In this document: one piece after another, positions 26,759-44,928 of the stretch
How the letters are laid out: the number at the start of each line of letters is the position of its first letter
Numbering within the stretch: the first letter of the stretch is position 1
The notes under the pieces: generated by a model
The model's database searches: none
Seen by the model: only the letters and a program-made list of their open reading frames with translations
What the model was told of the DNA's origin: nothing
Origin: an uncultured archaeon
Lineage (GTDB): Archaea; Asgardarchaeota; Lokiarchaeia; Sigyniarchaeales; SOKP01
NCBI GenBank assembly: GCA_964508365.1
Contig: CAZDTP010000002.1
Coordinates: 64,001-128,000 of the forward strand
DNA: 64,000 bases
Direction: 5' to 3'
Made by a program: the position numbers and the translations under genes

Positions 26759-28195
26759 TTAATCGTGTAAAATCGGATTTCTGGCAGCAATTACTGCGTC
26801 AAGGCGTCCTATAGGCGTATTAGAAGGCGCATTTTTTAGTTTTTCGGGCTCATTTAGCGCTTCGTTGTAAATTTGATACATTACTTCAACAAACTTGTCT
26901 AAAGAGTTTTTAGATTCTGTTTCTGTTGGCTCAATCATAAGGGCTCCATTTACTATTAGTGGAAAATATATTGTTGGAGCATAAAAACCATAATCTAGTA
27001 TCCGTTTTGCTATATCTTCAGTATTAATATCATTTGGTAAGTACTTATCAGATAGGACAAATTCGTGTTGACAAATCCGGTCGTATGGAAGAGCGTAATT
27101 TTTCTTAAGTAGAGTTTTCAGATAATTAGCATTTAATACCGCAATCTGTCCAACTCGTTTTAATCCATCAGCACCTAAAGAAAGGATATAAACAAAAGCC
27201 CTTAAAACTATTCCAAAATTACCCCAAAAAGCTTTAATTCTCCCTATTGAATCGTGGTTCTCATAATTACAGATTATTCCTTTATCTGTTGATACAATAC
27301 AAGGTATAGGAAGAAAAGGAATTAATTCGTTAGTAACTCCCACTGGTCCAGAACCAGGCCCACCACCCCCATGAGGCGTAGAAAATGTTTTGTGTAAGTT
27401 CAAATGAACTATGTCAAATCCCATGTCTTTAGGGCGACAAATCCCTAACATAGGATTCAAGTTTGCTCCATCATAATAACACAACCCACCGTGCTCATGA
27501 ACGATCCTCGTTATGTCTTTAATTTGCCTATCAAAAACACCTAAAGTATTCGGATTTGTAAGCATAATTCCCGCTACATCTCCTTGCTTCATCGCATATT
27601 CGAGATGATCCAGAGGAACTTCCCCATGTTCATTTGATTGTAATTCAATCATCGAAAATCCTGCCATTTTTGCAGACGCAGGATTAGTACCATGAGCCGA
27701 ATCGGGAACAATTATTTTATTTTTTACGATTCCTTTTGTCTCAAAAAATTTTTTTATAATTAATAATCCTACCAATTCTCCATGCGCTCCAGCCGCTGGT
27801 TGTAATGTAAAACCATCCATTCCTGTAATTTCACATAACATTTTTGAAATTTCATTCAATATTTCTAAAGCGCCTTCATTCTCATCTTGAAGTGGGTGTA
27901 ATTGTGAAAAACTAGTCATTCTTGCTACGACTTCATTGATTTTTGGGTTATATTTCATAGTGCATGAGCCTAATGGATAAATTCCAGAATCTACGCCATA
28001 ATTAATTTTACTCAATTTTACATAATGACGCACGATTTCCACTTCAGAAACATCAGGAATTCGTAGTTCGTCTCTAATAAGATTTTTGGGTAATATCTCA
28101 TCGATCCTTTTAGATTTAACATCTAGTTTGGGTATGAAATTTCGTTGAACAAGCCCATTCCCCTTATCAAATATTAAACACTCATCAGCATCCAT
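26759..28195 (-). CDS. gcvPB: Glycine dehydrogenase (decarboxylating) subunit 2
   Basis: YPLGSCTMKYNP, QPAAGAHGE, SAHGTNPASA and HLNLHKTFSTPHGGGGPGSG (PLP lysine) motifs. Confidence 0.96.
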   Translation of the reverse strand: MDADECLIFDKGNGLVQRNFIPKLDVKSKRIDEILPKNLIRDELRIPDVSEVEIVRHYVKLSKINYGVDSGIYPLGSCTMKYNPKINEVVARMTSFSQLHPLQDENEGALEILNEISKMLCEITGMDGFTLQPAAGAHGELVGLLIIKKFFETKGIVKNKIIVPDSAHGTNPASAKMAGFSMIELQSNEHGEVPLDHLEYAMKQGDVAGIMLTNPNTLGVFDRQIKDITRIVHEHGGLCYYDGANLNPMLGICRPKDMGFDIVHLNLHKTFSTPHGGGGPGSGPVGVTNELIPFLPIPCIVSTDKGIICNYENHDSIGRIKAFWGNFGIVLRAFVYILSLGADGLKRVGQIAVLNANYLKTLLKKNYALPYDRICQHEFVLSDKYLPNDINTEDIAKRILDYGFYAPTIYFPLIVNGALMIEPTETESKNSLDKFVEVMYQIYNEALNEPEKLKNAPSNTPIGRLDAVIAARNPILHD

Positions 28196-29547
28196 TAGTC
28201 AGCACGCTCCTCTTCGTAGTTTATGGCTAGTCTAGCTGCTTTAATGAACTTCTCGATAGAACTACGCGAATTTAGCTCAGTTACACAAACAAGAACAACA
28301 TCTGACATATCAGGATAATAGGTTGAAATTTGAAGAGGAGGAAGTAAGTTCATTTTTTTGCATTCTCGAATTAAACCATTAATGTTTGGACACCTTACAA
28401 TAAATTCGTTATAAGTAGGTTTTTTGTTTAAAATTTTGTAGCCCGGGATTGATGCTATAGCTTTCTTAACATAATGAGCTTTTTGAAAATTCTGGTTGGC
28501 AATTTCGCGTAACCCCGTTCTTCCTAATGAGACGAGATAAATAAGCGCAGACAGTGAGCATAATGCTTGGTTAGTACATATGTTCGAACTTGCTTTTTCC
28601 CTCCTAATGTGCTGTTCTCGAGCTTGTAATGTTAACAAGAAACCTTCACGGTCTCCGTTTATCTCTTTGGTTTTTCCAACTAATCTTCCCGGTATTTTCC
28701 TCAGAAATTTCTTTTTTGCTGTGAAAATTCCTAAGCCTGGACCCCCAAATGATGGACTTATTCCAAAGGACTGACCCTCTGCCACGAATATATCTACATT
28801 AGTTTTTCCAGGGGGTTTCAAGAGCCCTAGACAAGTAGGGTCAGTCATACACTGGATCAACAAACAGTTGGGATACTTTTCCTTCACTTTATTTGACATC
28901 ACTAAAACATCGGTAATGTCTCCAAAAAAATTTGGGCTTTGGAACATAACGGCGGCAATATCTTCGTTTAACACATCATTCAATTTATCTTCAGAAGTAA
29001 TTATAAGTTCGATGTTTTGTCCCCAACAATAAGTCTTCACTACATCAATATAATCGGGATGAACACCTTCTAATAAAATGACTTGATTTTTCCCCGATAT
29101 AATAGAAGCCATGATAGCTGCTTCTGCAAGGGATGTCGATCCATCGTACATACTCGCGTTAGCAACTTCCATTTCAGTGAGTCGAGAGATTACGCTCTGA
29201 TATTCGTAAATTGCCTGTAGATAACCTTGACTAGCTTCTGCTTGGTATGGTGTGTATGAAGTATAGAATTCCGATCGACTTATAACAAAATCAACTAAGG
29301 AAGGGATATAGTGATAGTAACAACCAGCTCCTAAAAATGAATGAGAATATATTTTATTTTTATTGCCATACTCTTTCATTTTATCTAGAACATCAGGTTC
29401 CGACATCCCTTCAGAGATATTTAATGTTTTAATGATTAAATCTTTAGGAATATCTTGAAACAAATCATCTACATCGGGAACATTAATAATTTTAAGCATT
29501 TCAGCTATAGTTTTCTCATCATGAGATATAAAATCCATTTTATCCAA
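28195..29547 (-). CDS. gcvPA: Glycine dehydrogenase (decarboxylating) subunit 1
   Basis: FLGAGCY, YTPYQAEASQG, NASMYDGST and LQAREQHIRREKASSNICTNQAL motifs. Confidence 0.96.
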   Translation of the reverse strand: MDKMDFISHDEKTIAEMLKIINVPDVDDLFQDIPKDLIIKTLNISEGMSEPDVLDKMKEYGNKNKIYSHSFLGAGCYYHYIPSLVDFVISRSEFYTSYTPYQAEASQGYLQAIYEYQSVISRLTEMEVANASMYDGSTSLAEAAIMASIISGKNQVILLEGVHPDYIDVVKTYCWGQNIELIITSEDKLNDVLNEDIAAVMFQSPNFFGDITDVLVMSNKVKEKYPNCLLIQCMTDPTCLGLLKPPGKTNVDIFVAEGQSFGISPSFGGPGLGIFTAKKKFLRKIPGRLVGKTKEINGDREGFLLTLQAREQHIRREKASSNICTNQALCSLSALIYLVSLGRTGLREIANQNFQKAHYVKKAIASIPGYKILNKKPTYNEFIVRCPNINGLIRECKKMNLLPPLQISTYYPDMSDVVLVCVTELNSRSSIEKFIKAARLAINYEEERAD

Positions 29548-29593
29548 CTCCTATAAATAAAAAATTTAAAATAAAAGTTTTACCATAATCTCG

Positions 29594-29986
29594 TTAATTC
29601 TCTTCTTCTGCGATTCTTTTATAATCTTCAACTGATAAAAGATCGTTGATCTCCAATTCATTTGTATATTCTAATTTAAGCATCCAACCAGAGCTAAAAG
29701 GAGAAGAATTAACTAATTCGGGATTTTCAACAAGGGTACTGTTTACTTCAATAATTCTACCAGATAATGGCATTAACAACTCACCGACTGCTTTTACAGA
29801 TTCAATTTCACCAGCGCTGCTCTGTCTTTCCAAATTTGCCCCTTTTTCTGGCAACTCGATATACACAATATCACCTAATTGATGTTGAGCAAAATCTGTT
29901 ATACCTACAGTGGCTGTTTTATCTTCGAGTCTTACCCATTCATGCGTTTTCGTATATTTTAAGTTATCAGGGAATTCATAATTCAT
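29594..29986 (-). CDS. gcvH: Glycine cleavage system H protein
   Basis: YTKTHEW, GITDFAQHQLGDIVY and IESVKA (lipoyl lysine) motifs. Confidence 0.96.
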   Translation of the reverse strand: MNYEFPDNLKYTKTHEWVRLEDKTATVGITDFAQHQLGDIVYIELPEKGANLERQSSAGEIESVKAVGELLMPLSGRIIEVNSTLVENPELVNSSPFSSGWMLKLEYTNELEINDLLSVEDYKRIAEEEN

Positions 29987-30021
29987 ATTTATCTACCTCA
30001 TACTATAAAATAAAGTGTTAT

Positions 30022-31107
30022 TCAAACATTGCGAAAGAACGGTGTAGATACGACAGTTCCTTTAAGATTTTTATTTCTCACTTGAATTTCAAGCGTAGTT
30101 CCTATCTCTTTGTATTGTTTATTAATAAGACCTAAACCAATCGTTTTTTTGAGAGTTGGAGAATATCCTCCTGAGGTGACATACCCAATTTCGACATTTT
30201 CCTTGAAAATTTTAAAATTTTCTCTAATGATACCTCGTTCCAATAAATTCAATCCTACTATTATTCTCTCAGTTCCATGTGTTTTTTGTTCCATAAGTAT
30301 TTTTTTACCAATGTACTCTATCCCCTCTTTAGGTTTAACTAACCAAAATAGTCCTGCCTCTACAGGCGTTATTGAATCGTTTATTTCATGGCCATATAAA
30401 GAATAGGTGGCCTCTAACCTTAAAGAATCTCTTGCCCCTAAACCAGCTGGAGATGCTCCAGTTTGGATCAAATCACTCCAAGTTTTCTCTGCGTAGACAT
30501 TATCGATTGATAATTCAAATCCTCTCTCACCAGTATAACCTGTTCTAGCGATAAATATCGGAGCTTTATTTAAATTACCATGAGCAAAATAGAAGCGATT
30601 AATCGAGTTTAAATCTACATCAACCAAAGGTTGTAGATATTCATCAGATTTGGGACCTTGAAAAGCTAAACGCGATCGCACTGAAGATAAGTTGGTGATT
30701 TTTACATCTCTACTACCTATATGCTCGTTTAACCACTGAAAGTCTTTTTCAACATTCCCAGCATTAACAATCATTCTAAATTTGTTTGGATTTTCTTCGT
30801 AATAAACTAAATCATCAACGACGGTACCGTTATCGAAACACATGCAAGAATATTGACCTTTCGATGGTTCGAGTAAGTTTAAATCGTTTATCATTACATA
30901 TTGAAGAAAGTCAATGACATCCTCACCCTCCAACAGAAATTCGCCCATGTGAGATACATCAAATACCCCTGCTTTAGATCGTACTGCTTCATGCTCTTTT
31001 ATGATGCTGTCGTATTGAACTGGCATACTAAAACCAGCAAAATCTACCATCTTTGCTCCTAATTCTATATGACAGTTATAGAAGGGCGTTTTTTTAAGTT
31101 CTGGAAT
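30022..31107 (-). CDS. gcvT: Glycine cleavage system aminomethyltransferase T
   Basis: FDVSHMG, TGYTGERGFE, GLGARDSLRLEA and VTSGGYSP motifs. The conserved N-terminus LKKTPFY...ELGAKMVDFAG extends upstream of the tracked ATG 31050; the proposed start is ATT at 31107. Confidence 0.93.
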   Translation of the reverse strand: MPELKKTPFYNCHIELGAKMVDFAGFSMPVQYDSIIKEHEAVRSKAGVFDVSHMGEFLLEGEDVIDFLQYVMINDLNLLEPSKGQYSCMCFDNGTVVDDLVYYEENPNKFRMIVNAGNVEKDFQWLNEHIGSRDVKITNLSSVRSRLAFQGPKSDEYLQPLVDVDLNSINRFYFAHGNLNKAPIFIARTGYTGERGFELSIDNVYAEKTWSDLIQTGASPAGLGARDSLRLEATYSLYGHEINDSITPVEAGLFWLVKPKEGIEYIGKKILMEQKTHGTERIIVGLNLLERGIIRENFKIFKENVEIGYVTSGGYSPTLKKTIGLGLINKQYKEIGTTLEIQVRNKNLKGTVVSTPFFRNV

Positions 31108-31259
31108 TAAATCTACACCTATTATTGTGTTTAATATTCTACTGTGAGTATAAAGTACAGAGAGTTATTTAAGTTTTCAGACTAAAAATAATGGAGAATT
31201 TTAAGGGAAAAAAATGGGTTGTTATATTATTATATTAATGAAAGATTCTAATCGTAAGA

Positions 31260-31787
31260 CTATTCCTCTACGGGAATCTGAACTAAACTAAGCGTATCAT
31301 ACCCTACTAGTTTATCTCTACCATGTAGGCTTCCAGTGAGTTCTATAACAAATGCTATGCCTACTACAACACCACCCGCTTTTTCTATCAGATTACAAGC
31401 TGCTTTAGCGGTACCTCCAGTCGCTAATAAATCATCAAATAAGAGAACTTTTTCTCCTTTTTCTATAGCATCTTTATGCATTTCAATTGTATCAGTTCCA
31501 TATTCTAGTTCATAAGTCTCACTTATCGTCTCAGCAGGTAATTTTCCAGGCTTTCTTATTAATACAAATCCTGCACCTAACTGGTATGCCAATACACCGC
31601 CCCAGATATATCCTCTAGCTTCAACAGCACAAATTTTATTTATCCCCTTATTATTAAAATGGTTAATTAACCTATCACAAGATTCTTTGAACGCACCATG
31701 ATTTTTACTTAAAGTTGTAATATCTTTAAACTGAATTCCTTCGATTGGAAAATCTGGGACATTTCTGATATAACTCTCTAAATCCAT
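31260..31787 (-). CDS. apt: Adenine phosphoribosyltransferase
   Basis: IRNVPDFP, FKDITTL, EARG, RKPGKLP, LEYG and DDLLATGGT motifs. ATG 31787 is preferred over TTG 31796. Confidence 0.95.
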   Translation of the reverse strand: MDLESYIRNVPDFPIEGIQFKDITTLSKNHGAFKESCDRLINHFNNKGINKICAVEARGYIWGGVLAYQLGAGFVLIRKPGKLPAETISETYELEYGTDTIEMHKDAIEKGEKVLLFDDLLATGGTAKAACNLIEKAGGVVVGIAFVIELTGSLHGRDKLVGYDTLSLVQIPVEE

Positions 31788-31967
31788 AATAAACAAAAAT
31801 CTCTTTTTATTAAAATTAAAGTTTACATAAGGTAATTTAAAATTATATTTAATTCAATCGTCATTTTAATTGAAATCTATTAATTTAACCGAAATTAGAA
31901 AAAATTAAATAAACATCCTTTTATAAAAAATATATTAGAAGTATAAATTGTTTAATGGTGAAAAGAA

Positions 31968-32924
31968 ATAAAAGTACTGTTATTTGGTCCCGGTGGTGCA
32001 GGTAAAACATCGCTAATGCGTACTACTTGTTTAGGATATAACTTCATGAAAGTGCTCAATCTAAAACCTACAAAAGGAGTTTCGAGGGAAAATTTTATCT
32101 TTCGTGGAATTATGGAATTATCCATCTGGGATCTAGGAGGACAACAACTTTACATGGACAGATACTTCTCTGAAAAACAACGAGAGCTTGTCTTTTCTGA
32201 AGTAATGACGGCAGTTTTCATGGTGGATTCAACGGCAAATGAACCTCGTTTAAAAGAAATTTTTGATAATTTTTTGAAGTACCTCTTTGAATTTAGTCCT
32301 CAAGTCGAGAAAGTATATGTTTTGCTAAATAAAATTGATCTTCAGGAATCGAAGGAAGACGAATTATATGAACTACTTATCGATAAGCTCACCGACGATT
32401 TGAAAAATAGAGTTGCTTTTACCCCTGTATCGGTGAAAGAGGGGAGTGCTCAACATAGATTAATTGAAATTTTAGATTACAAAATCCAACAAAATACTTT
32501 AGCGCTACAAAGACTAGGAAAAATAAGACACATGCTAGATCAGTTAAAGATTATTACACTCTCGGAATACTTTTTGTTTAATCAACCGGATGGGCTATTA
32601 ATAGCATCAACTTTGGGAAAAATAGATTTAAATCATAAACTTCAATTTATGAAGCTAGAAATAGGAACGCTTGAATCGAATATATATCAAATCTTCACAA
32701 GGATTATGAATCTTTCAGATTCCCCGTTGTCACCTCTGGAATTATCCACTGTCATATATGAAAGCGAATATAACTATATTTTAATGAAGGAACTTAGCAA
32801 TGGATCGGTACTGATGGTTGTTACAAAAGATAAAACTATTGGAACTTTTAATACGGTGATAACCGAATTAAATGGAGAAGATTTCCAAAATTTGAAAAAA
32901 TTCCTTAATAGGGACGACTTTTAA
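31968..32924 (+). CDS. Gtr1/RagA-like small GTPase with C-terminal roadblock domain
   Basis: P-loop KVLLFGPGGAGKTSLM lies upstream of the tracked ATG 32016. LSIWDLGGQQLYMDRYF...ELVF resembles Gtr1 LNLWDCGGQ..FMENYF...HIF. NKID (G4) and a roadblock-like C-terminus (LFNQPDGLLIAS...ILMKEL...LMVVT) follow. Confidence 0.85.
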   Translation: MKVLLFGPGGAGKTSLMRTTCLGYNFMKVLNLKPTKGVSRENFIFRGIMELSIWDLGGQQLYMDRYFSEKQRELVFSEVMTAVFMVDSTANEPRLKEIFDNFLKYLFEFSPQVEKVYVLLNKIDLQESKEDELYELLIDKLTDDLKNRVAFTPVSVKEGSAQHRLIEILDYKIQQNTLALQRLGKIRHMLDQLKIITLSEYFLFNQPDGLLIASTLGKIDLNHKLQFMKLEIGTLESNIYQIFTRIMNLSDSPLSPLELSTVIYESEYNYILMKELSNGSVLMVVTKDKTIGTFNTVITELNGEDFQNLKKFLNRDDF

Positions 32925-33945
32925 TTAATTCTAAATCAATTTTATTAGAAAATATTGTTATATTAGAATGTTCTTCAATAATAGAAAACAAATAATTGTT
33001 TGTATTTTTAATTACAGGTGTTATAAACAATAATTCTTCTTCGGGAATGCATTTTTCAACTTTTTCGTTTAATACCTCTTTTTCAAAAAATTCTTTAATA
33101 TAAGTAATTCGGACGATGAGATCGTCGAATTCTTTTTTACTGTTATTCTTTACTAAAACTTCTATTTCCTGAAAATTGTTAATACTATATATACTAGTTA
33201 TTTTAAATTGATCTTTAATTCCTAATTTTTGCTGAACAACTCTATCATAATCAAATAATCGAATTTTAGAAAACGATTTATTTTGATTGTTTATGACAAT
33301 GTGGTCAATATCGATTCCTTTAAATGTTAAATAAGAAATTGCTTTTTGCAATTTGAAAGTGGTCGTATCAGTTTGTTTAATTACAGATGAAAAATATTCC
33401 TCACAAGTAAGGTTAATTATAGCTTTTATTTCTTCTTTTATTTGATCTCCTTTTTTTATCTTATTGATTAATTTCTCTGTTTTGATAATTTCTAGTTTCG
33501 CAATTTCTGACTCGATTACATAATAAAGCGTATTTTCAAATTTGGTGATTAATTTTTCCGTTAATAAGTTTAATACATCTCCCCCAAAAACATCTAAATC
33601 TGTTGGTAACATAAGTATCAATACAATCGTTTCACCCAATTTTGGAAAAGACCCTGATCTTCTTTTAACTCTCTTAGAATCAATAATAATTTTCTTCGCA
33701 AAATACATTTGATTACAATATTCTAAATCGATTCGGTTAATTGTAGTTTCATCTTTAAGTTCTAAAAACCAAATTGGATGGTATCTTATAAGATGTAATT
33801 TTCCCGAATCATCATCTAGCGCATTTTCTGGACAAATAAGAAGTGGGATATGACCTAAAGTCTCATCAAAATAAAACAAAAGAGTCTCACACAATTCACT
33901 AAATGGACACTCTGTATTGGCGTTATTTAAGAGATTTTCTTTCAA
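32905..33945 (-). CDS. Longin/uDENN-like domain protein (NPRL2-like N-terminus) with a C-terminal beta-sandwich
   Basis: LLFYFDETLGHIPLLICPE resembles the first hairpin of uDENN/NPRL2 longins (FFSEFHPTLGPKITYQVPE). The C-terminus has alternating beta-strand patterns. Confidence 0.6.
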   Translation of the reverse strand: MKENLLNNANTECPFSELCETLLFYFDETLGHIPLLICPENALDDDSGKLHLIRYHPIWFLELKDETTINRIDLEYCNQMYFAKKIIIDSKRVKRRSGSFPKLGETIVLILMLPTDLDVFGGDVLNLLTEKLITKFENTLYYVIESEIAKLEIIKTEKLINKIKKGDQIKEEIKAIINLTCEEYFSSVIKQTDTTTFKLQKAISYLTFKGIDIDHIVINNQNKSFSKIRLFDYDRVVQQKLGIKDQFKITSIYSINNFQEIEVLVKNNSKKEFDDLIVRITYIKEFFEKEVLNEKVEKCIPEEELLFITPVIKNTNNYLFSIIEEHSNITIFSNKIDLELIKSRPY

Positions 33946-34003
33946 TTTAAATCATTATTTTCTTCATCAAATCAATTATATTTAATGAATATTATTTTTA
34001 ATG

Positions 34004-35308
34004 TTAATGAGAAGCGCACGATATGCAAGGATCAAATGCTCTTATCATTCTTTGAGTTTTTTCTTTAACAGAATCGATATCTTCTTTTTCATATAGCTTT
34101 TTAGCATATTCTGTGATCATTTTGTTAAGAATAGGCAAATTTATTTCGGTTGCAATGAAAAGTTTTACTTGATCAACGATTTTAGCTTTATTTAAATGAT
34201 AATGATGCATTAATACACCTCTTGGTGCTTCGAGAACCCCTATTCCATTTGATTTTTTTATTGAGTTTAGGTGTTCAAGTTTTGTTTTACTTTTTAGTGA
34301 AGTAGTATTTACCATTTCAACACTTTTCTGAATTTCGTAATAACTTTCAATTAATTGTAAAAAGTTTAAAAATAATAAATTGCTTTTCCATTTTTTTCCA
34401 AAATTGCTTATATATTCGGATATTTTATCAATCCCATAATTTTGAGTTATCTTATAGCGTGCTATTGGTCCTGTTAAAATGTTATTTTTCGAATTTGACT
34501 TAAACGTAATCCCATAAAGATTAGGGTTTTTATCAAAATATTTTGAATAATTTTTCGCTTGAAAATCGTCGTAAGTTGCTTCATTTTGTTCAATTCTGAG
34601 ATCTCCTTCATATCTATCAAACCCCATATTATTCTTTAAACCGAAAAATATAGGATTAGAAAGATTAAATTCTGTAGGAGGATCAAAAGCAGAAAATAAA
34701 TCTATAAAATTTTCAATTATGGTGTCTATATAGTAAATCCCCTTTTTTAGATATTTCTCTATAGAAATTAAACTCTTTCGATTAGGATTGAATATTAATC
34801 CTCCAGGAATAGGAGTAATTGGATGTAGCATCCTTCCTCCTATTAACTTATTTATTTCTGAACCAATTTTTATTAAATTAAAAACATTTGTCGTTAATTG
34901 AGGATTGTAATTAATCAAATTATAAGGATCGTTAATTGTATGATTAATATTAAATATTTTTAATAAATCTGGAAAGGACTGGAAAAAATAATGCATCATG
35001 TGCGATTTTATTAATTCTCCGGATAATAAAAGCCTTCTAAGCAAAATTGATTTATATGATGGTTCTATTCCGTATATATCTTCTATTGCTTTGCAACTTG
35101 CAATTGTTTGAGATGCGTAGCACAATCCACAAATTCTAGATACTATTTTTGGAATTTCTAATAATTTTTTCCCTACTAAAATATTTTCAAATCCTCTAAA
35201 TACTGAAAAATTTAATTCAGTTTGATAAATTTCATCATTTTTTAAATAAATGATTAAGTTTCCACTACCTTCAACTCTTGTGCATGCTGCCACAACTTTA
35301 TCTATCAA
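34004..35308 (-). CDS. [NiFe]-hydrogenase large subunit, group-3-like, without C-terminal extension
   Basis: TRVEG, L1 RICGLC, EAPRG and L2 DPCISCASH followed directly by a stop. The TTG start overlaps the upstream stop. Confidence 0.9.
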   Translation of the reverse strand: MIDKVVAACTRVEGSGNLIIYLKNDEIYQTELNFSVFRGFENILVGKKLLEIPKIVSRICGLCYASQTIASCKAIEDIYGIEPSYKSILLRRLLLSGELIKSHMMHYFFQSFPDLLKIFNINHTINDPYNLINYNPQLTTNVFNLIKIGSEINKLIGGRMLHPITPIPGGLIFNPNRKSLISIEKYLKKGIYYIDTIIENFIDLFSAFDPPTEFNLSNPIFFGLKNNMGFDRYEGDLRIEQNEATYDDFQAKNYSKYFDKNPNLYGITFKSNSKNNILTGPIARYKITQNYGIDKISEYISNFGKKWKSNLLFLNFLQLIESYYEIQKSVEMVNTTSLKSKTKLEHLNSIKKSNGIGVLEAPRGVLMHHYHLNKAKIVDQVKLFIATEINLPILNKMITEYAKKLYEKEDIDSVKEKTQRMIRAFDPCISCASH

Positions 35309-36069
35309 ACCTTCCCTCCTACAGTCGATTTTGAGAACCTATAATATATCGCTTTATATTTTCTTAAGTCTTTAGAAAGGTGAAAAAGGCTTAAAATGTT
35401 GATTAAATTCGCTGTAAAACCCTTTGAAGCCGTGCCAAGACATCCTTCACAGGGTAATCCTTGATTTATACAGAGATGATCACAACCATCTCGAGTAACA
35501 GGACCTAAACATAAAATCCCGTCGTTTAAAAAACACGATAAATTTTCTTCCGGAAAATGAATTTCATCGTTTCTTGGAACAATCTTTTCTATTGTTAATG
35601 GAAAATCAAATTTTGCGTGGTTGTTTAAAGGACAAGTAGAACACATATTTTTTAAGCTTAGCTTGATTTTTTTGTTCTCAACTAAATTCAATATACAATT
35701 TCCTAAAAGTATGGACGGAGGAGGACATCCAGGAATAATACCATCAATTTCTACGTACTTTGAAATAGGATACGATTCTTTTTTATTTGAGAGACTAAGA
35801 ATCCCCCCAAATGCAGAGCATGTACCTAATGCATATAATTTTTTTGCATTTTTTCGTATTTCTTGAAGATATTCGATTTGATTCTTTTCGGATACGCACC
35901 CCTCTACTAGCGCTATATCGCATTCTTTGATCTCTAAATTGTCAGATATAAATGGAAAATATTCGATTTTCGTTCTCTCAAGAAATTGTGGAAATACATC
36001 TAACGATATTAATGCTGATATACATCCAGTACAAGACGTTAAAGAAGTAATTAAAAATTTAAGCCTTAC
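35305..36069 (-). CDS. [NiFe]-hydrogenase small subunit (MvhG/HydD-like)
   Basis: Manual translation extends the tracked ORF 35305-35691 in frame: (M)RLKFLITSLTSCTGC...ALVEGC...ALGTCSAFGG...IPGCPP...CSTC...CLGPVTRDGC...CEGC. There is no ATG/GTG/TTG upstream; the proposed start is GTA at 36069. Confidence 0.87.
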   Translation of the reverse strand, partial: VRLKFLITSLTSCTGCISALISLDVFPQFLERTKIEYFPFISDNLEIKECDIALVEGCVSEKNQIEYLQEIRKNAKKLYALGTCSAFGGILSLSNKKESYPISKYVEIDGIIPGCPPPSILLGNCILNLVENKKIKLSLKNMCSTCPLNNHAKFDFPLTIEKIVPRNDEIHFPEENLSCFLNDGILCLGPVTRDGCDHLCINQGLPCEGCLGTASKGFTANLINILSLFHLSKDLRKYKAIYYRFSKSTVGGKV

Positions 36070-38605
36070 TTTTAATCTCCTCCTTTAATAAATAATAGAA
36101 TTTATTAGAGATTTCAGCAAATTTCTGTCCTTCTACTCCATTTAAGCTTATCACTATTATCCGTCTGCTTAACTTTGGTCCTAGAATCTTTTTTAAAAGC
36201 CCGACTCTTTTTCTTAATTTTTCAATCCCATCGATATATCTACAAGAATCCTTTCTACAACCGATAATCATAACTCCATCAAATCCCATTTCAAAAGATT
36301 TAAAAATGAATTCAGTATCAATACGTCCAGTACAAGGAACAGAGATTATAAAAACATTAGGCGGATATAACAATTTTTTTAATCCCGCATCGTCAGCGGC
36401 AGCGTAACCGCACGATTGGCAACAAAAAGCGATGATTTTTGGTTTTTTATTGAATTTTGAGAAAATTTCAATCGTTTTTAAAATCTTTTCTGATGTATTT
36501 ATATTCATTTCGATGGCATTAGTAGGACAAACACTCGCACACATACCACAAGCTTTACATTTAAACTTATCAATAGTAATTTTTTCGGAGATTATGCTTA
36601 TTGCATTGTAAGGGCAGGAATTGACGCAGAGGTTACACAATCCACATTTATCTTCATTAATCTCTATTCCAGTATATTCTGCTATTAAATAATCATTTGA
36701 AAGAAGGGATATTACTTTTAATGCTATGTTATTGGTGGATGCAATAGTTGAGTGATAATTTAATGGCCCAAATATTGTGCCAACACCATAAATACCAGAA
36801 GCTAAAGTTTCTTCACTCATAAAACCATAATCATTTAAAGTGAAGTCCATAATCTTTCTTAGAGATTTCAGATCCTTATTTGGAATTAATTTTATATTTA
36901 AAACAATCAAATCACTCTGAAACTCAATAGAATCCGCAATTACATAATTAATATTTTCTCTTGTCTCAATTAATACTTTATTAGCGTAAAGAAATCTAGG
37001 ATGAGTAGATTTTAGTATTATCTCGTCTTTTTCTTTTAATTTACTTAAATCGTAAAAAACATTAACTTCACAATCAGGGTTCTTCACTTTAATAATATCT
37101 ATATACTTTAGGGTTAAAATATCCGAATATTCACATAGATAGTTTGAAGGTCCTACTTCTTGAATAATTGATATTGTTTTCGCTATTTTCCCATCAGACA
37201 ATTTTACAATCTTTCCATCAGTTAAGCCATCTGAACATAAAATTCGTTCAAATTCTGCCGAAGTTATAACATTATTTCGTGGGTTGTAATTATATTTTTT
37301 TAAATTTGAATAAAGATCTGAACCAATAGCTATAACTTTTGCACCTACTTTAATTCTTAATTCCTTAGGCTTTTCCATTAAATTTATTGCATTATTTGCA
37401 CAAGCGCGTTCACATACTCTACATTCAAGGCAGTTATTAATATCATTATCTTCAATAACGGGGACATAAGGATAACAGTATTGAAAAGGAAAGTGAATTA
37501 TTTTTCTATTTGTTAATCCAAATTCATACATATTAACTTTCTCTCGAGCACACACATCAATACATTGGTTACAACCTGTACATTTAGTCTCATCAATATA
37601 GCGAGGTTTTTTAATTAATCCTATAGTAAAATTGCCAACTTCTCCAGATACACTTATTATTTCTGTATTTGTCAATATTTCGATTTTTTTATCTTTTACA
37701 ATTTCCCCAATTAATTCAGAGATGAAACAAGCAGAACAATCTCCCATATTAGAAATTTTTTGCCATCTTGCTACTTTTCCTCCTAATGTAGGTGACTTTT
37801 CAATTAGATAACCGTTGATACCTGCCTTTGATAAGTTTAAAGCTAGGTTCATACCCGCAATCCCACCTCCAACAATAGCGCAGCTTTTTTCAACTTCAAC
37901 TCTTTTTACTTTAATTGGTTTTTGAAGATTTACTCGATTAACTGAGGCTTCTATAAGTAATTGCGCTTTTTTCAGAGTTAAACGACTATCAATATGCTTT
38001 TTACTGGAATAATGTACCCAACAGCATTGTTCTCTTATATTTGCAATCTCAATATTTGTATTATCAATTATATTTTGAAAAAGATGTTCAAATATATGTT
38101 GATGTGTTTTAGGAGAACAAGCAGCGATAATAATTTTATTTATGAAGTTATCAGTAATCCAATTATTAATATTATCTTGATTTTTTTCTTGGCATAAATT
38201 ATCAAGGATTTTAACTGAGACTACATTGTTTATTTTACTTACATAATTTTCTAAGGAGTTAATGTTAAGCACATTTGTAATTTCTGTATTACAATTACAT
38301 ATAATAACACCTATTCTGTTTATTTCGCTCCCTTTTGATTTTAAATATTCTATTTCCTCTCCAGATAAAATTCTTTTGTTTAATCCTAATACCCTTAAAA
38401 CTCTTTTACCGTCATCAGTTAAATAATACGATTTTTTGTCTTTACTTACTAAAATATTAAGCTTTTTCAAATGAAAATTTAATTGTCCTGTTTGTTTTAT
38501 ACCTAACTTCACCATTAATTCGGTATATGGGATAAATCCCTCTTCTTCGAGAAGGTATAAGAGTTTTCTTCTCATTGGATGGGCTAAAATTGAATATATA
38601 TCCAT
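36059..38605 (-). CDS. Fusion of ArsR-like winged HTH, HdrA-like FAD/Fe-S protein and MvhD
   Basis: aa 1-75 ILAHPMRRKLL...GQLNFHLKKL...YYLTDDG (wHTH). IGVIICNC, AACSP, ANIREQCCWVH, VGGGIAG, EKSPTLGG and ferredoxin CxxCxxCxxxC motifs (HdrA). C-terminal IIAFCC...YAAAD...VPCTGRID...GFDGV...GC...CRY (MvhD). Confidence 0.9.
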   Translation of the reverse strand: MDIYSILAHPMRRKLLYLLEEEGFIPYTELMVKLGIKQTGQLNFHLKKLNILVSKDKKSYYLTDDGKRVLRVLGLNKRILSGEEIEYLKSKGSEINRIGVIICNCNTEITNVLNINSLENYVSKINNVVSVKILDNLCQEKNQDNINNWITDNFINKIIIAACSPKTHQHIFEHLFQNIIDNTNIEIANIREQCCWVHYSSKKHIDSRLTLKKAQLLIEASVNRVNLQKPIKVKRVEVEKSCAIVGGGIAGMNLALNLSKAGINGYLIEKSPTLGGKVARWQKISNMGDCSACFISELIGEIVKDKKIEILTNTEIISVSGEVGNFTIGLIKKPRYIDETKCTGCNQCIDVCAREKVNMYEFGLTNRKIIHFPFQYCYPYVPVIEDNDINNCLECRVCERACANNAINLMEKPKELRIKVGAKVIAIGSDLYSNLKKYNYNPRNNVITSAEFERILCSDGLTDGKIVKLSDGKIAKTISIIQEVGPSNYLCEYSDILTLKYIDIIKVKNPDCEVNVFYDLSKLKEKDEIILKSTHPRFLYANKVLIETRENINYVIADSIEFQSDLIVLNIKLIPNKDLKSLRKIMDFTLNDYGFMSEETLASGIYGVGTIFGPLNYHSTIASTNNIALKVISLLSNDYLIAEYTGIEINEDKCGLCNLCVNSCPYNAISIISEKITIDKFKCKACGMCASVCPTNAIEMNINTSEKILKTIEIFSKFNKKPKIIAFCCQSCGYAAADDAGLKKLLYPPNVFIISVPCTGRIDTEFIFKSFEMGFDGVMIIGCRKDSCRYIDGIEKLRKRVGLLKKILGPKLSRRIIVISLNGVEGQKFAEISNKFYYLLKEEIKSKA
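36077..36084 (-). promoter_or_regulatory. Shine-Dalgarno AGGAGGAG for the hydrogenase small subunit
   Basis: Lies 7 nt upstream of GTA 36069, inside the 3' end of the upstream gene. Confidence 0.55.
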
Positions 38606-38725
38606 TTTTGAGCTTTCCTATTGAGTTTTTATTCTAAATTTATTTTGTTAAAAACTTTTTTTTGACAAATTATTTTTTCTTCATGATAATATATGTTGTA
38701 AAAGTATATAAGTATGTTAGAAAAT

Positions 38726-38737
38726 GATCATATGATC
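38726..38737. promoter_or_regulatory. Perfect 12-bp palindrome GATCATATGATC, candidate operator
   Basis: Self-complementary sequence in the 322-bp divergent spacer upstream of the HTH-HdrA operon. Confidence 0.45.
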
Positions 38738-38801
38738 CCTGAATTCCATCAATAAAAATGACGATTTTCAATTAACTAAAAAAATTGTTATGAAAAAAAT
38801 T

Positions 38802-38821
38802 TTGATAAATTTCCTTATCAA
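38802..38821. promoter_or_regulatory. Inverted repeat TTGATAA-N6-TTATCAA, candidate operator
   Basis: Perfect 7-bp arms in the same divergent spacer. Confidence 0.45.
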
Positions 38822-38927
38822 GAAGTTAAAAAATATTCTTGTCAAATTCTTTATATTTCAAGCTTATTACAATTCAATTAGGTAAATACTTATTTAAAAA
38901 GTTGAAATAAAAGAGGTGGATTAATAT

Positions 38928-39545
38928 ATGGAAGTTTTGGATTTGAAGTCAGTAAAAAATAAAAAAATAATAGCATATATGTCCTCAAAAGAAAATGGCA
39001 GGTATTTTCAAAATAAAAATACATTAGGATTAACCGAATTTCTTAAAAAGAAAGATGTTAATTTTGTTACCGTAGATTTTCAAGTAAATATGAAGGAATT
39101 TAAGAAAACACCTTTTGCACAAACATTAGATAACCTTGGAATACCATATATTCAAGTAGATATACCAGATTATGCAATGGGATATCTTTACGAAGAAGTT
39201 GTTGAAAAACAAAAACTTCAAAATGAATTATTTGAAGAATATGAAAATATGAGTGATAAAGAATCTTTCAAAGGACAAAGTTTAAAAAACTGGATTGACA
39301 TGTTAAGCGAAGAAATTCAAGAAAAAGAGATTTTTTTAAGTTTAAAGCTAAGACCACAGTGGATCGTAAAAAAAATGTTAGATTTTGCATATCATTTTGA
39401 AAATGAAGTTGTTTCTTTTGTACATTTTGTTCAAGAGGATATTTGCGAGGATATTTGCCCTCAAGTCGTGGCAAATTTAAGAGATTTGGGTGTAAAGGTA
39501 ATTTCCTATACTAAAAAACATACAATTCAAAATATTATATTTTAA
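38928..39545 (+). CDS. Hypothetical protein, paralog of the downstream gene
   Basis: Shares EVL(D/E)LK, GI.(Y/F)...DI.....YL and (K)(L/V)R..W patterns with 39569-40300. SD GAGGTG is present. Confidence 0.75.
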   Translation: MEVLDLKSVKNKKIIAYMSSKENGRYFQNKNTLGLTEFLKKKDVNFVTVDFQVNMKEFKKTPFAQTLDNLGIPYIQVDIPDYAMGYLYEEVVEKQKLQNELFEEYENMSDKESFKGQSLKNWIDMLSEEIQEKEIFLSLKLRPQWIVKKMLDFAYHFENEVVSFVHFVQEDICEDICPQVVANLRDLGVKVISYTKKHTIQNIIF

Positions 39546-39568
39546 TTAAAAAAAAGGAGTGAGAAAAA

Positions 39569-40300
39569 ATGCCAGAAGTATTAGAATTAAAGCCATTAAA
39601 AGATAAGTATCTAAAGCTTATCATGGTAGAAAGTGAGTTTCCAATAGATTGGTGGTTCGAAGTTCCTAAAGAAAAAAAGGAAGATTTGCTATGGTCTTTA
39701 CATCTTATTAGCAAAGAATATCTTCAGCTCGTCGATAATTTAATCGACAAGTATTCACCAGATTTTGCTTTGGAAGAAAAACCCAATTTTTGGAATGACC
39801 CGTTAAATCCTAACGATCCTCTAAAAACCTTATTCCAAAAGAAAGGAATTCGATTTAAACATGCTGATATCTCTGAAAATGCGGAATTTTATCTTTCCGC
39901 CGCATTAGATGAGCATAGAAATATGCTGCAAATACTTGAAGAGCGAATCAGAGAGATAATTACAGAAAAAGGTGTTGTTCCCTCCGAGGATGAACTTTTC
40001 CAACAATTAGTTTTATGGAAGGAATATCTCAAAAATGATTATAACTCACAAGAAGATGAAATTCGATATAAAGTTAGAGAGGCTTGGATGATGATGAATA
40101 TTTTAAACATTGCCAAGGAGATTGAAGGGAAAAAATCAAAGGGGTTATTTATTTGCGATTTAAGGCACTTTGAAGGCCTTGATAAGTTAGCAAACGATTT
40201 AGGCATCGATACAGAACAGATCAAAATCAAAAGAACTATTAAAACCGCAGAAATCGAAAAAGAGTATGAAGAAGAGGTAGTTGTTGAAATATCTAAATAG
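39569..40300 (+). CDS. Hypothetical protein, possibly TraB/TIKI/EreA-like fold
   Basis: SPDFALEE, VREAWMMMNI and LFICDLRHFEGL loosely recall TraB/ChaN motifs. SD AGGAGTGA is present. Confidence 0.6.
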   Translation: MPEVLELKPLKDKYLKLIMVESEFPIDWWFEVPKEKKEDLLWSLHLISKEYLQLVDNLIDKYSPDFALEEKPNFWNDPLNPNDPLKTLFQKKGIRFKHADISENAEFYLSAALDEHRNMLQILEERIREIITEKGVVPSEDELFQQLVLWKEYLKNDYNSQEDEIRYKVREAWMMMNILNIAKEIEGKKSKGLFICDLRHFEGLDKLANDLGIDTEQIKIKRTIKTAEIEKEYEEEVVVEISK

Positions 40301-40351
40301 TTTTTTTAGTTATAATTTCATAGAATTTTATAATTTAATTAATGATGTGAG

Positions 40352-41365
40352 ATGAGAAAAATTACTCAAAATAATGAAATTGGAAATAAAATTGAAAGTA
40401 TTCTTGGTATTAAATCAATAATAGAATTGACGCCAATTAAAATAAAGAAAAAGGATACTTCAGATAAGATTTGTTATTTTTTTGATACGGATGATAACGC
40501 TTCTCCATTTGACATTAACATGGCTTACGACGCTGGTTTTGATATTGTTGTGCCAATAAGTAGAATGACGGCGGATCAAGTTCCTAAACTTGTCCAGGAT
40601 GCTATATTTTCACGTAAACCTAAAGCACCTACAACCTTTTTTATTGGGGGATCTAATGTAGAAGAAGGGGAAAAAATCTCTAAGAAAGTTATTGAATCCT
40701 TAGTACCTCCATTTGAATGTCCTGTAATAATAGATCCAAGGGGTTCTCATACTACTGCTTCTGCAGTTGTAGCTAAGACTTTATACGATGCTAGAAATAT
40801 ATATAAAATTAGTGATTTAAAAGGAGAAAAAGTCGTAATCTATGGGGCAGGCCCAGTTGCCAGAATTGCTGCCATATTAGCCGCAAAAGAAGGTTTGAAT
40901 ACATTTTTAGTTGAAACTTGGGATAAATCGAACGATGTGTTTATAAAAAATCTTGCTAAAGAACTAACCGAAGAAGCTGGTGAGAATGCAACCGAGGTTA
41001 AAGGGATTTTTGCGCCTGAGAAAGAACAAAGATATAATGTTGCTAAAGATGCGTTAATTATTTGGTCTCTAGCTGCTGCTGGTGTTGAAATTTTATCAAG
41101 CGATCTAATGGAAAGGTTAGAAGGTAAGAAAATTGTAGTAGATATCAATTTAGTTCCCCCTTATGGAATTGAAGGAATAAGACCAAAACACGATAATGAA
41201 GAAATATATCCAGGAATTTTTGGAATCGGAGCATTAGCATTAGGTCGTTTAAAAGCAAATTCGGAGGGAGAAATATTAAAGGAAGCAACAAAAACTAAAG
41301 GTACAAAGGTATTTGATTATAACTATGCGTTCGAAGTTGCTAAAAAATTGTTATCTAGAATGTAA
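40352..41365 (+). CDS. mtdB: NAD(P)-dependent methylene-H4MPT dehydrogenase (MtdA/MtdB family)
   Basis: SPFDINMAYDAG, QDAIFSR, FIGG, DPRGSHTTASA, GAGPVARIAA and DINLVPPYGIEGI motifs. Confidence 0.85.
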   Translation: MRKITQNNEIGNKIESILGIKSIIELTPIKIKKKDTSDKICYFFDTDDNASPFDINMAYDAGFDIVVPISRMTADQVPKLVQDAIFSRKPKAPTTFFIGGSNVEEGEKISKKVIESLVPPFECPVIIDPRGSHTTASAVVAKTLYDARNIYKISDLKGEKVVIYGAGPVARIAAILAAKEGLNTFLVETWDKSNDVFIKNLAKELTEEAGENATEVKGIFAPEKEQRYNVAKDALIIWSLAAAGVEILSSDLMERLEGKKIVVDINLVPPYGIEGIRPKHDNEEIYPGIFGIGALALGRLKANSEGEILKEATKTKGTKVFDYNYAFEVAKKLLSRM

Positions 41366-41423
41366 ATTTTAAATTTTTTAAATTTTTTTTATTGATTTAT
41401 TGGTTAGTTTGGAGGGGAATAAA

Positions 41424-43697: not shown

Positions 43698-43731
43698 GAA
43701 AAAATTTAATAAAATTTAAAAGGTGCACATA

Positions 43732-43983
43732 ATGGTGATTTGGTCGGTTAATGAAATAATCAGTTTTGGAGAAAAAATCGTTTTATCTGCTAAAAGCGAA
43801 TTTACATCTGAATTTGCTCGAGGTTGTTTTGAAACTGAGATAATTGAAAAAGAAGCACAAATAAATGAATATTTAAATGCATATAATGCAATTCGTGACA
43901 AAGACTCATTTAATAGACAATATATCGAAACTTTAATATATTTATTAAAATCTGAGATAAAGGGAATCCAAAAAATGTTTTAA
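43732..43983 (+). CDS. Small helical hypothetical protein
   Basis: AGGTG SD then ATG 43732, 34 bp after the cdc48 stop. Confidence 0.6.
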   Translation: MVIWSVNEIISFGEKIVLSAKSEFTSEFARGCFETEIIEKEAQINEYLNAYNAIRDKDSFNRQYIETLIYLLKSEIKGIQKMF

Positions 43984-44079
43984 GAGGATTACCTTAATTT
44001 TTTTAGTATTATTGTTTATTTTAAAAAATTAACTTAAAAAAATAAGAATTTTTTAAAAATTATATTTTAATAATAATAA

Positions 44080-44928
44080 TTAAGCTTCTTTTTCGTGGAG
44101 TTTTCTTTTGGTTAAAAGATGTTGGTTAATATGATGAGGCGTTCTCAATACTGTATCGTTAGATTTTTCTATTTCTCTAGCTTGTATGCATAACTCAGCA
44201 GCAGTTTTCATCATTTCGTGAGATGCAGCTAATAAAGGCATATAATCGGCTCTATCTTTTAAAACAAAGCATGCTCTTCCAGTAATCTTAGAAACTGAAG
44301 CAGCTAATTCAAAAGCTGCAATCGCTTTAGCTTGAGCGTAAGGATTTGAAAAGCCTGCTGCCGCTGTAGCGTTAGTGGCATCAATTTCAATCTGAGGTAA
44401 AGTAGGAGCCTTCCCTTCTAACATATCCATTACAACTTTATTTAATTCGTTAGTTATTATATTAAAAGCACCAGTAATCGTAAGAACTTTTAATAGATCA
44501 GAATTGAAGCAACTCATCTCGATAGGATCTAGAAATGGACGCCTTGCTCCTATCATAGAATCACAACCTACGATAATATAACCCATATTTTTTTCCTTAA
44601 ATTCTTCGATGGCCTTTTTTGCTGGAGCATCAGAGATTACAATCGTAGGAATATTTCCTGCTAATTCTCTTGCTGCTTTAGGTCCTTTTAATGCCGCATT
44701 TGGGCTGGACATCAAGATCAACTCCGGTTCAAATTCCAACAATCGTCGCATCGTTTCTACGCATTCCTCTGGGGGGTTCATCTTCGCTCCCGAAGTAACT
44801 TCTCGCACTTTAATTCGAGTAGCTTCAGCCCTTTCATCCAATAAAAATGCAAGTAATAACGAGGAACCAATTGTCCCGTTCTTTAGAATACCAATCTTTA
44901 AAAAATTTTCTTCACTCATTTTTGACAC
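44080..44928 (-). CDS. mtd: F420-dependent methylene-H4MPT dehydrogenase
   Basis: GTIGSSLLL..LLDERA, SGAKM, SPNAALKGP, MIGARRPFLDPIEMSCFNSD and FSNPYAQAKA motifs. Confidence 0.95.
   Translation of the reverse strand: MSKMSEENFLKIGILKNGTIGSSLLLAFLLDERAEATRIKVREVTSGAKMNPPEECVETMRRLLEFEPELILMSSPNAALKGPKAARELAGNIPTIVISDAPAKKAIEEFKEKNMGYIIVGCDSMIGARRPFLDPIEMSCFNSDLLKVLTITGAFNIITNELNKVVMDMLEGKAPTLPQIEIDATNATAAAGFSNPYAQAKAIAAFELAASVSKITGRACFVLKDRADYMPLLAASHEMMKTAAELCIQAREIEKSNDTVLRTPHHINQHLLTKRKLHEKEA

Follow-up and report, generated by a model that had tools for sequence, protein, structure and literature searches.

A Rag-like GTPase gene and a longin gene overlapping at their 3′ ends in a Lokiarchaeial genome: a probable lineage-specific junction of two synteny blocks

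Introduction

NPRL2-like longin proteins are abundant in Asgard archaea (excerpts of Liu et al., bioRxiv 10.1101/2020.10.19.343400). Asgard longins of the GTPase-activating protein (GAP) type, with a GP motif ('FLCN/SMCR8-type') and an arginine finger, are described in excerpts of PMC12290439; there, the GP motif of FLCN, NPRL2, SMCR8 and C9orf72 is placed at the passage from a loop to strand 2, beside the arginine finger, the pair of features is reported in 15 Asgard longins, and the question is posed which GTPases the GAP-like longins serve. GTPase genes are generally not found in operons with longin or roadblock genes, and genome layout seldom helps in pairing them (Tran et al. 2024, PMC10933270, excerpts). 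Pairing the small GTPases of Asgard archaea with their regulators is an open problem, on which a conserved Rag–longin pair would give a direct handle. Here we analyze a locus in which a gene for a Rag-like GTPase (open reading frame A, ORF-A) and a gene for a longin protein (ORF-B) overlap at their 3′ ends. The locus lies in a 64,000-nt stretch of DNA, hereafter the window, from an uncultured Lokiarchaeial archaeon (assembly GCA_964508365.1, contig CAZDTP010000002.1, positions 64,001 to 128,000); the host genome has 4.07 Mb in 149 contigs and ∼30% G+C. A sequence-only reading of the window had taken the two genes for a physically linked ancestral Rag–GAP pair. We found that the two genes meet where two synteny blocks were recently joined, and the locus therefore gives no such handle on GTPase–regulator pairing.

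Results

Two convergent genes sharing 20 nt

The two genes and their overlap have the following positions in the window:
31968..32924, + strand: ORF-A, gene for a Gtr1/RagA-like GTPase of 318 amino acids (aa), identified by Pfam, phmmer and orthologs
32905..33945, − strand: ORF-B, gene for a 346-aa longin protein with a TTG start, without Pfam assignment
32905..32924, no strand: 20-nt overlap of both 3′ ends, from the ORF stop positions

The stop codon of ORF-B appears as TTA on the + strand at 32905-32907, and that of ORF-A is TAA at 32922-32924; from these positions follows the convergent 20-nt overlap that the sequence-only reading had reported. Judging by their homologs, both are real genes, since database searches yield 176 homologs of ORF-B at E<=1e-3 and 613 of ORF-A at E<=1e-10. 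The relatives of both proteins are labelled Promethearchaeota or Lokiarchaeota, and nearly all named homologs of ORF-B are Lokiarchaeial or Asgard, with a few under bacterial bin labels. Two of the contigs with clear Lokiarchaeial genes (L001 and L053) carry the bacterial bin names Nanopelagicaceae and Deferrimicrobium and are probably mis-binned or mislabelled contigs of metagenome-assembled genomes.

Short contigs from three RNA libraries (three studies) match the GTPase gene in part, with 98-99% identity, covering 31963-32226, 32343-32493, 32432-32668 and 32640-32790; such contigs do not prove transcription. For ORF-B, the only contig cover is by a relative with 90-95% identity, from a run of probable DNA origin, and the missing cover is uninformative.

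The adjacency is confined to one nested clade

The genes on both sides of the overlap are:
26759..31796, − strand: gcvP (as two halves) with gcvH, gcvT and apt; this flank upstream of the GTPase gene is conserved
32925..44079, no strand: 11.2-kb stretch between the GTPase gene and mtd, absent at that position in 8/8 relatives examined
34004..35308, − strand: [NiFe]-hydrogenase large subunit, MvhA-like (Pfam NiFeSe_Hases 1.4e-25)
35305..36069, − strand: hydrogenase small subunit, MvhG-like, with GTA where the ortholog in locus L004 has a GTG start
36059..38605, − strand: fusion of a winged helix-turn-helix domain (wHTH; DUF7347), an HdrA-like part, ferredoxin and MvhD, 848 aa (Pfam FlpD 9.9e-34, Fer4, DUF7347 1.8e-9)
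44080..44928, − strand: mtd, methylene-tetrahydromethanopterin (H4MPT) dehydrogenase (Pfam MTD 3.5e-105)
45095-46006, + strand: ftr (Pfam FTR 3.7e-52)

The glycine cleavage operon that the sequence-only reading had placed next door is indeed there, with the gcvP halves, gcvH and gcvT at 26759-31050 and apt at 31260-31796. ORF-B is the last gene of the wHTH-HdrA/MvhD-MvhG-MvhA block, and the 11.2-kb stretch holds ORF-B, mvhA, mvhG, the wHTH-HdrA-MvhD fusion, two unknown ORFs, a gene with an Mpt_N domain and cdc48.

Four lines of evidence bear on the age of the adjacency. The first is the set of ORF-B loci. We collected 80 such loci from species-representative genomes; 73 have at least 1 kb of downstream sequence and 70 have evaluable upstream sequence. 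Downstream, the GTPase gene is the convergent neighbour in 10/73 and a co-directional GNAT gene in 54/73, while one locus (L002) has a cut copy of the GTPase gene. Upstream, MvhA directly precedes ORF-B on the same strand in 21/70 loci and an enolase-superfamily gene does so in 37/70.

The second line is a tree of ORF-B (77 rows), made by a quick IQ-TREE search. A hydrogenase-linked subfamily of 22 rows is split from a GNAT-linked one of 55 rows with a support of 100. All GTPase-adjacent rows fall in one clade of 12 (Shimodaira–Hasegawa approximate likelihood-ratio test, SH-aLRT, 99), nested in the hydrogenase-linked subfamily.

The third line comes from 80 genomes sampled evenly across the class. 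Of these, 68 have the GTPase ortholog as a single copy, among them 64 of the 66 genomes that belong to the window's family. Members of the ORF-B family occur in 67 and MvhA in 55, with ORF-B adjoining MvhA in 21 of these 55. ORF-B adjoins the GTPase gene in only six of the 68 GTPase genomes (G000, G025, G037, G060, G066 and G072), all of one genus. In a further genome (G070), not counted among these six, both genes lie at contig ends.

The fourth line is the GTPase region itself, inspected in eight of the 62 genomes with the GTPase but no adjacent ORF-B. In 8/8 the GTPase gene, with apt on its other side, converges on a gene of 283-285 aa, followed by one of 303-307 aa. At one of these loci (L114), the two genes are mtd and ftr by Pfam, and 84 nt separate the stops of the GTPase gene and mtd.

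Gains and losses of the two genes follow the same pattern. In three genomes (G051, G021 and G061), the HdrA-MvhG-MvhA-ORF-B block is on other contigs than the GTPase gene. In three more (G022, G034 and G068), the GTPase is 83-88% identical to that of the window, MvhA is absent, and the only ORF-B relative is a 41-42% identical paralog on another contig. In G072, a stop breaks the ORF-B beside the GTPase gene, and the middle part of this ORF-B is missing; the GTPase gene is intact.

Since the ORF-B loci, the tree, the genome sample and mtd as the ancestral neighbour all agree, the adjacency of the GTPase gene and ORF-B is not ancestral. The gain and loss patterns agree with a derived adjacency as well, and the 20-nt overlap is thus a seam between two synteny blocks. 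Comparison of gene order across genomes had been set beforehand as a test that could refute the proposed pair; it found an adjacency that is not conserved, occurring in 6/68 genomes and 10/73 loci and in one nested clade, and the claim of a physically linked ancestral pair is not supported.

Lokiarchaeota are reported to carry ∼40 longin and 38 roadblock domains (excerpts of PMC10933270). The host genome has 40 places that match Pfam Gtr1_RagA, 16 of them at E<=2.1e-13. With roughly 4000 genes, we estimate that about one GTPase–longin adjacency per genome would be expected by chance, so that a single case such as this one does not exceed chance.

ORF-A is a Rag-like GTPase with an ATA codon at the start position

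ORF-A occupies the stop-to-stop frame 31962..32924 (+) and encodes the P-loop GPGGAGKTS, DLGGQ and NKID. The match to Pfam Gtr1_RagA has an E-value of 1.9e-23 and 83.5 bits (cut-off 22), with Arf second at 49.2 bits; possession of the G1, G3 and G4 motifs together with a score above the Gtr1_RagA cut-off places ORF-A in the Rag/Gtr family. By phmmer, the protein aligns to residues 4-293 of yeast Gtr1 (3r7w_A, E 3.6e-20), with a weak C-terminal half of the alignment. This half appears roadblock-like by its alignment to the C-terminal domain of Gtr1. The naming of the gene by the sequence-only reading as Rag-like holds. Compared with yeast Gtr1 and human RagA, then, the G domain matches Gtr1_RagA and the alignment with Gtr1 spans the whole length. 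ORF-A also matches the Lokiarchaeal Rag-like structures LokiRagM (8zla/9m28; 8zla E 1.5e-11) and LokiRagO (8yl2, E 4.3e-10), for which no describing paper was found in the literature searched. The ATA start described below is a trait of the window's own lineage.

A Shine-Dalgarno-like motif precedes the gene:
31956..31960, + strand: GGTGA, 7 nt before ATA, present in the window and in all 10 aligned ortholog loci

The TGA within GGTGA is the stop that closes the ORF-A frame upstream. No ATG, GTG or TTG was found in this frame of the window before the P-loop. An ATA stands at 31968, aligned with Met1 of orthologs that start with MKVLLFGP, in agreement with the start at 31968 that had been proposed from the letters. 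Nine of the 10 aligned ortholog loci (L001, L003-L011) likewise have ATA in the place of Met1, and the tenth (L011) has ATT there with ATA one codon earlier. A canonical in-frame start before the P-loop exists only in two of the 10 loci, L003 (TTG, codon 4) and L010 (GTG, codon 3). The more distant GTPase orthologs (70-88% identity) start with MKVLLFGP or MKILLFGP and a canonical Met codon. The ATA conserved across the clade at the Met1 position may thus be a conserved weak start. Public gene calls for the GTPases of this clade are often 291-302 aa long, the callers choosing an internal Met.

A second change from NTG to NTA at a start position in the window is that of mvhG. Its GTA (36067-36069, −) stands directly after an AGGAGG-like motif, and the frame is open for 255 codons, of which ORF callers give 128 aa.

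The single-copy GTPase gene has a stable metabolic neighbourhood across two genera, head-to-head with apt and beside the glycine cleavage genes: it adjoins apt in 9/9 fetched relatives, and gcvT is next in 7/8 evaluable ones. Outside the window's clade it converges on mtd-ftr of the H4MPT C1 pathway (L114, L115, L118-L120, L122, L124 and L125).

ORF-B has a predicted longin domain

Sequence searches with ORF-B against Pfam, NCBIfam and PDB sequences, by single sequence, by profile and via 28 and 46 homologs, gave nothing meaningful. Pfam NPR2 (PF06218) and Folliculin (PF11704) match neither ORF-B nor the 28 homologs nor the 46 aligned members; a search with NPR2 found no match in the host genome, and none in the control genomes either, which makes this negative result uninformative. 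The name 'nitrogen regulatory protein PII-like', given by the Joint Genome Institute to an ORF-B homolog, was set aside as uninformative.

An AlphaFold model of ORF-B was made from a 52-sequence alignment (mean predicted local distance difference test, pLDDT, 76.7). It has three parts: a longin domain at residues 20-151, helices at 157-208 and a beta-sandwich at 247-337. Because the sandwich swamped the full-length Foldseek list, the N-terminal domain (residues 1-156) was folded alone, with pLDDT 82.9 and a predicted template-modelling score (pTM) of 0.79. The predicted domains correspond to:
33493..33906, − strand: longin domain, aa 14-151, from the AlphaFold models, Foldseek and VIA-align
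32926..33207, − strand: C-terminal beta-sandwich, aa 247-340, from the full-length model

The longin domain has the topology beta-beta-alpha-beta-beta-beta-alpha-alpha (E20-27, E31-38, H47-60, E71-76, E79-88, E105-114, H115-136 and H140-151). Matches to the sandwich are confined to generic domains of the Ig/FnIII-like kind (glycosidases, Kir channels and DUF3244); it dominates the full-length Foldseek list, down to a beta-arrestin row with a TM-score of 0.19. No DENN domain and no NPRL2-type C-terminal domain was found in the model, where a helical linker and a single Ig-like sandwich stand instead.

When the N-terminal domain was submitted to Foldseek, ranks 1-10 were all taken by GATOR1/SEACIT chains, with 9h4q_T (E 4.1e-4) and 8adl_S (8e-4) ahead of 9v0j_A, 9o5a_H, 7t3b_B, 9o5d_D, 8adl_U, 8fw5_C, 9o5d_C and 9o5a_C; the five best have E-values of 4e-4 to 2e-3. 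Beyond rank 10 come a chain of an FLCN complex, a Lokiarchaeal roadblock-longin and DENND10, and Sec22 is at rank 19. The assignment of single chains in the GATOR1, SEACIT and FLCN complexes to NPRL2 or FLCN is our assumption. VIA-align is less selective. With the full model, the best matches are 6nzd_H (Z 10.7, root-mean-square deviation (rmsd) 3.4, 143 aligned) and 8fw5_B (Z 10.6, rmsd 3.1, 135 aligned), and other longins lie within one Z unit (Sec22 10.3, VAMP7 9.8 and BLOC-3 9.7). With the N-terminal domain alone, 8fw5_B has Z 8.9 and AP-3 sigma 8.8. Many longin families match at Z 8-10.7, and the GATOR1/FLCN chains are tied inside one Z unit with Sec22, AP sigma, Gse1 and MglC.

The longin fold of the ORF-B model can be taken as established by its topology and its matches to solved longins. 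A specific affinity to NPRL2 or FLCN is suggested by the Foldseek ranking and by a feature search that placed ORF-B at 0.91 to a Promethearchaeota cluster with Pfam NPR2 in 19% of members, a lead only. Of the name 'NPRL2/uDENN-like longin' given in the sequence-only reading, the longin part thus stands, with GATOR1/SEACIT and FLCN-complex chains nearest by Foldseek; the DENN or NPRL2 C-terminal part and a match at the sequence level were not found, and VIA-align ties other longins.

Conserved residues resemble the signature of GAP longins

Residue counts were taken over 46 homologs of ORF-B, down to 19% identity. Two sites stand out:
33850..33855, − strand: G31-H32, the first residues of strand 2, at the place in the structure where the published 'GP motif' lies (46-homolog alignment; excerpts of PMC12290439)
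33652..33672, − strand: R92-x-K94-x-R96-S-G98, candidate arginine-finger loop between strands 4 and 5 (46-homolog alignment)

G31 is kept in 45/46, and the next residue is His (H32) in 35/46 and Pro in 3/46. The loop has the pattern SxRxKxR[AS]G, with R92 kept in 40/46, K94 in 41/46, R96 in 39/46 and G98 in 40/46; its pLDDT is low in both models. Other kept residues are P39 (44/46), H56 (45/46) and W59 (45/46). The VIA alignment to 8fw5_B begins at model residue 17 and chain residue 6; if it is ungapped, G31 would fall on chain residue 20, presumably the Gly of the NPRL2 GP motif. The catalytic arginines of the two known proteins are Arg78 of NPRL2 and Arg164 of FLCN, the numbers given in the sequence-only reading. 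The family thus appears to carry a GAP-longin-like signature in which His replaces the Pro of the GP motif. A search of two supplementary files of PMC12290439, which may not include Data S1 with the Asgard sequences, found none of the short motifs of ORF-B.

Compared with the longins NPRL2/Npr2 (GATOR1/SEACIT) and FLCN/Lst7, ORF-B is alike in the longin fold, in a conserved Gly at the start of strand 2 and, as a candidate counterpart, in the conserved Arg of the loop between strands 4 and 5. It differs in having no Pfam NPR2 or Folliculin match, in the His for Pro in 35/46 homologs, and in the helical linker with an Ig-like sandwich in place of the DENN/NPRL2 C-terminal domain; GAP activity is putative. 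With the Asgard NPRL2-like and FLCN/SMCR8-type GP-motif longins, as these appear in the excerpts cited, ORF-B shares a GAP-longin-like structure with the conserved Gly and Arg, and some of its relatives, too, are fused to sensor-type (CBS) domains. Such CBS-fused homologs were found in three genomes of other families of the class (L126:780-2672(−), L127:509-2395(+) and L128:496-2412(+)) and also as P0149. They carry four C-terminal CBS domains (E 1e-43 to 1e-48) and keep every invariant residue of the longin loops.

In contrast, no profile relation is detectable to the GP-motif longin family of the host genome itself. Aligned by hhalign with the Folliculin-like longin of the genome (26-27-member alignment), the ORF-B family gives a probability of 0.1%; over all hhalign runs, including those with single sequences, the probability is <=0.7% and no longin region is aligned. 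As far as our searches show, the ORF-B family is unnamed. It spans the Lokiarchaeia in two paralog lines and in kind adds one more member to a known class.

Discussion

We consider it likely that ORF-A and ORF-B are two independent functional genes that came to abut through a lineage-specific rearrangement, and that they are not an ancestral switch–regulator pair. The ancestral place of the GTPase gene would be between gcvT-apt and mtd-ftr, and one paralog line of ORF-B would travel as the last gene of the wHTH-HdrA/MvhD-MvhG-MvhA block. In one clade of one genus, the 11.2-kb stretch with the hydrogenase block would then have been set between the GTPase gene and mtd, producing the convergent overlap. 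ORF-B itself would most likely act as a longin-type platform or a GAP, its clients being one or several of the organism's many small GTPases, with the conserved Gly31 and Arg92/Arg96 loops as its probable working face. Nothing except adjacency singles out the neighbouring GTPase as its client.

Several observations weigh against this interpretation. The adjacency has been kept while ORF-B diverged to 55% identity (L011, G066), thus some selection for adjacency is possible. The predicted fold class and the conserved Arg and Gly are as expected of a Rag GAP. The GNAT-linked paralog is near-universal in the family (ORF-B relatives in 60/66 genomes) and could serve the GTPase in trans. On the side of method, the tree comes from a quick search, and eight of 62 non-adjacent genomes were inspected. 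Finally, a GTPase-regulating role of ORF-B, the most likely one as we infer it, has the modelled fold and the motifs as its sole basis, and R92 or R96 is, at the level of residues, a putative counterpart of the catalytic arginine in the NPRL2/FLCN finger.

Some of these points favour a different explanation, in which ORF-B is a dedicated GAP or GAP subunit of the adjacent GTPase, the two forming a minimal prokaryotic Rag–GATOR1/FLCN module whose adjacency is functional. The NPRL2/FLCN-like longin fold is on top of the Foldseek list, the conserved Gly31 and Arg92/Arg96 loops lie at sites described for GAP longins (excerpts of PMC12290439), the neighbouring GTPase is of the Rag type, and the adjacency is retained in the clade down to 55% identity of ORF-B. 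Moreover, longin–Rag coupling does exist in the host genome, which has a Folliculin-like longin beside a GTPase and a longin–GTPase fusion. However, the adjacency is derived and present in 6/68 of the GTPase genomes, and the genes are convergent and hence form no operon. The GTPase is near-universal, whereas this line of ORF-B is patchy and dispensable (G022, G034, G068 and G072), and 16 strong Rag-like paralogs are available as alternative clients. ORF-B also has no DENN part, no sequence-level match to NPR2 or Folliculin and no profile similarity to the Folliculin-like longins of the genome (hhalign 0.1%). All in all, we regard a dedicated pair as unlikely.

Alternatively, ORF-B might serve the wHTH-HdrA/MvhD-MvhG-MvhA module as an accessory, scaffold or output protein, its longin and sandwich domains acting purely as protein-binding platforms without any regulation of GTPases. 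ORF-B is co-directional with mvhA and lies 58 nt downstream of it, and this order is found in 21/21 loci of the hydrogenase-linked subfamily that have upstream sequence; ORF-B moves and vanishes along with the hydrogenase block. Yet 34/55 of the genomes with MvhA have no adjacent ORF-B, and the larger paralog line (55/77 tree rows) is tied to the GNAT gene, not to the hydrogenase. The invariant Gly and Arg loops are common to both lines and to the CBS fusions, which argues for a function independent of the hydrogenase. In addition, since an AT-rich, TATA-like stretch precedes ORF-B, the gene may have a promoter of its own. We find a role confined to the hydrogenase module decidedly improbable.

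A more speculative proposal, to which we give little credence, makes the family a metabolic-state-coupled GAP-type longin, fused in some Lokiarchaeia to four CBS domains, which bind adenosyl ligands, and in others the fourth gene of a possible H2/redox-sensing module; in the window, this module would be placed against the one universally conserved Rag-like GTPase among the genes of glycine cleavage and H4MPT C1 metabolism. If ORF-B or its GNAT-linked paralog did switch the GTPase off by energy or redox state, the system would be a prokaryotic functional counterpart of Rag–GATOR1/FLCN nutrient sensing.

That ORF-B is a trafficking-type longin (adaptor sigma/mu, SNARE longin, SRX or TRAPP) and not a GAP-type one is very improbable: VIA Z-scores within one unit of GATOR1/FLCN (Sec22 10.3, VAMP7 9.8, AP-3 sigma 8.8-9.4, synbindin 9.6 and SRX 9.3) and an alignment of AP-2 mu (longin plus beta-sandwich) over residues 17-336, albeit with an rmsd of 15.4, would fit it, but ten GATOR1/SEACIT chains lead the Foldseek ranking with Sec22 at rank 19, both a SNARE motif and a membrane anchor are missing from the architecture, and we know of no trafficking-type longin family with an Arg-rich loop.

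With rearrangement as the favoured explanation, the useful remainder of the locus is 2-fold. One part is a well-defined longin family, present across the Lokiarchaeia, in which a Gly is invariant and a loop is rich in Arg; it comes in two lines with different fixed neighbours (hydrogenase block or GNAT) and has CBS-fused forms. The other is a single-copy Rag-like GTPase in a stable metabolic neighbourhood. The ORF-A and ORF-B proteins are concrete subjects for GAP and binding assays.

Other longin–GTPase links and minor observations

Better candidates for regulator–GTPase pairs than ORF-A and ORF-B are found elsewhere in the host genome. One longin gene encodes 224 aa that match Folliculin weakly (E 5.3e-4) and contain an 'LGP' motif; 21 nt downstream of it, in the same direction, begins a Rag-like GTPase gene (L084, 1297-1971(+) and 1993-2508(+)), and a second GTPase gene is divergent from this longin gene. 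In a 482-aa protein (L085, 505-1953(−)), a longin domain is fused to a GTPase domain and to a C-terminal extension.

In the hydrogenase block, the co-directional mvhA directly precedes ORF-B, with 58 nt between the two genes. MvhA ends in DPCISCASH without a tail. The winged-helix-type DUF7347 occupies aa 2-72 of the HdrA/MvhD fusion (E 1.8e-9).

At two GNAT-linked loci (L026 and L067), an unrelated small GTPase gene lies ∼1.2-1.9 kb downstream; GTPases being common here, we treated this as chance. The GNAT-linked paralog of ORF-B also occurs as a tandem duplicate (L080, 2958-3866 and 4001-4990; further cases on contig C12 of G069, C16 of G031 and C113 of G029).

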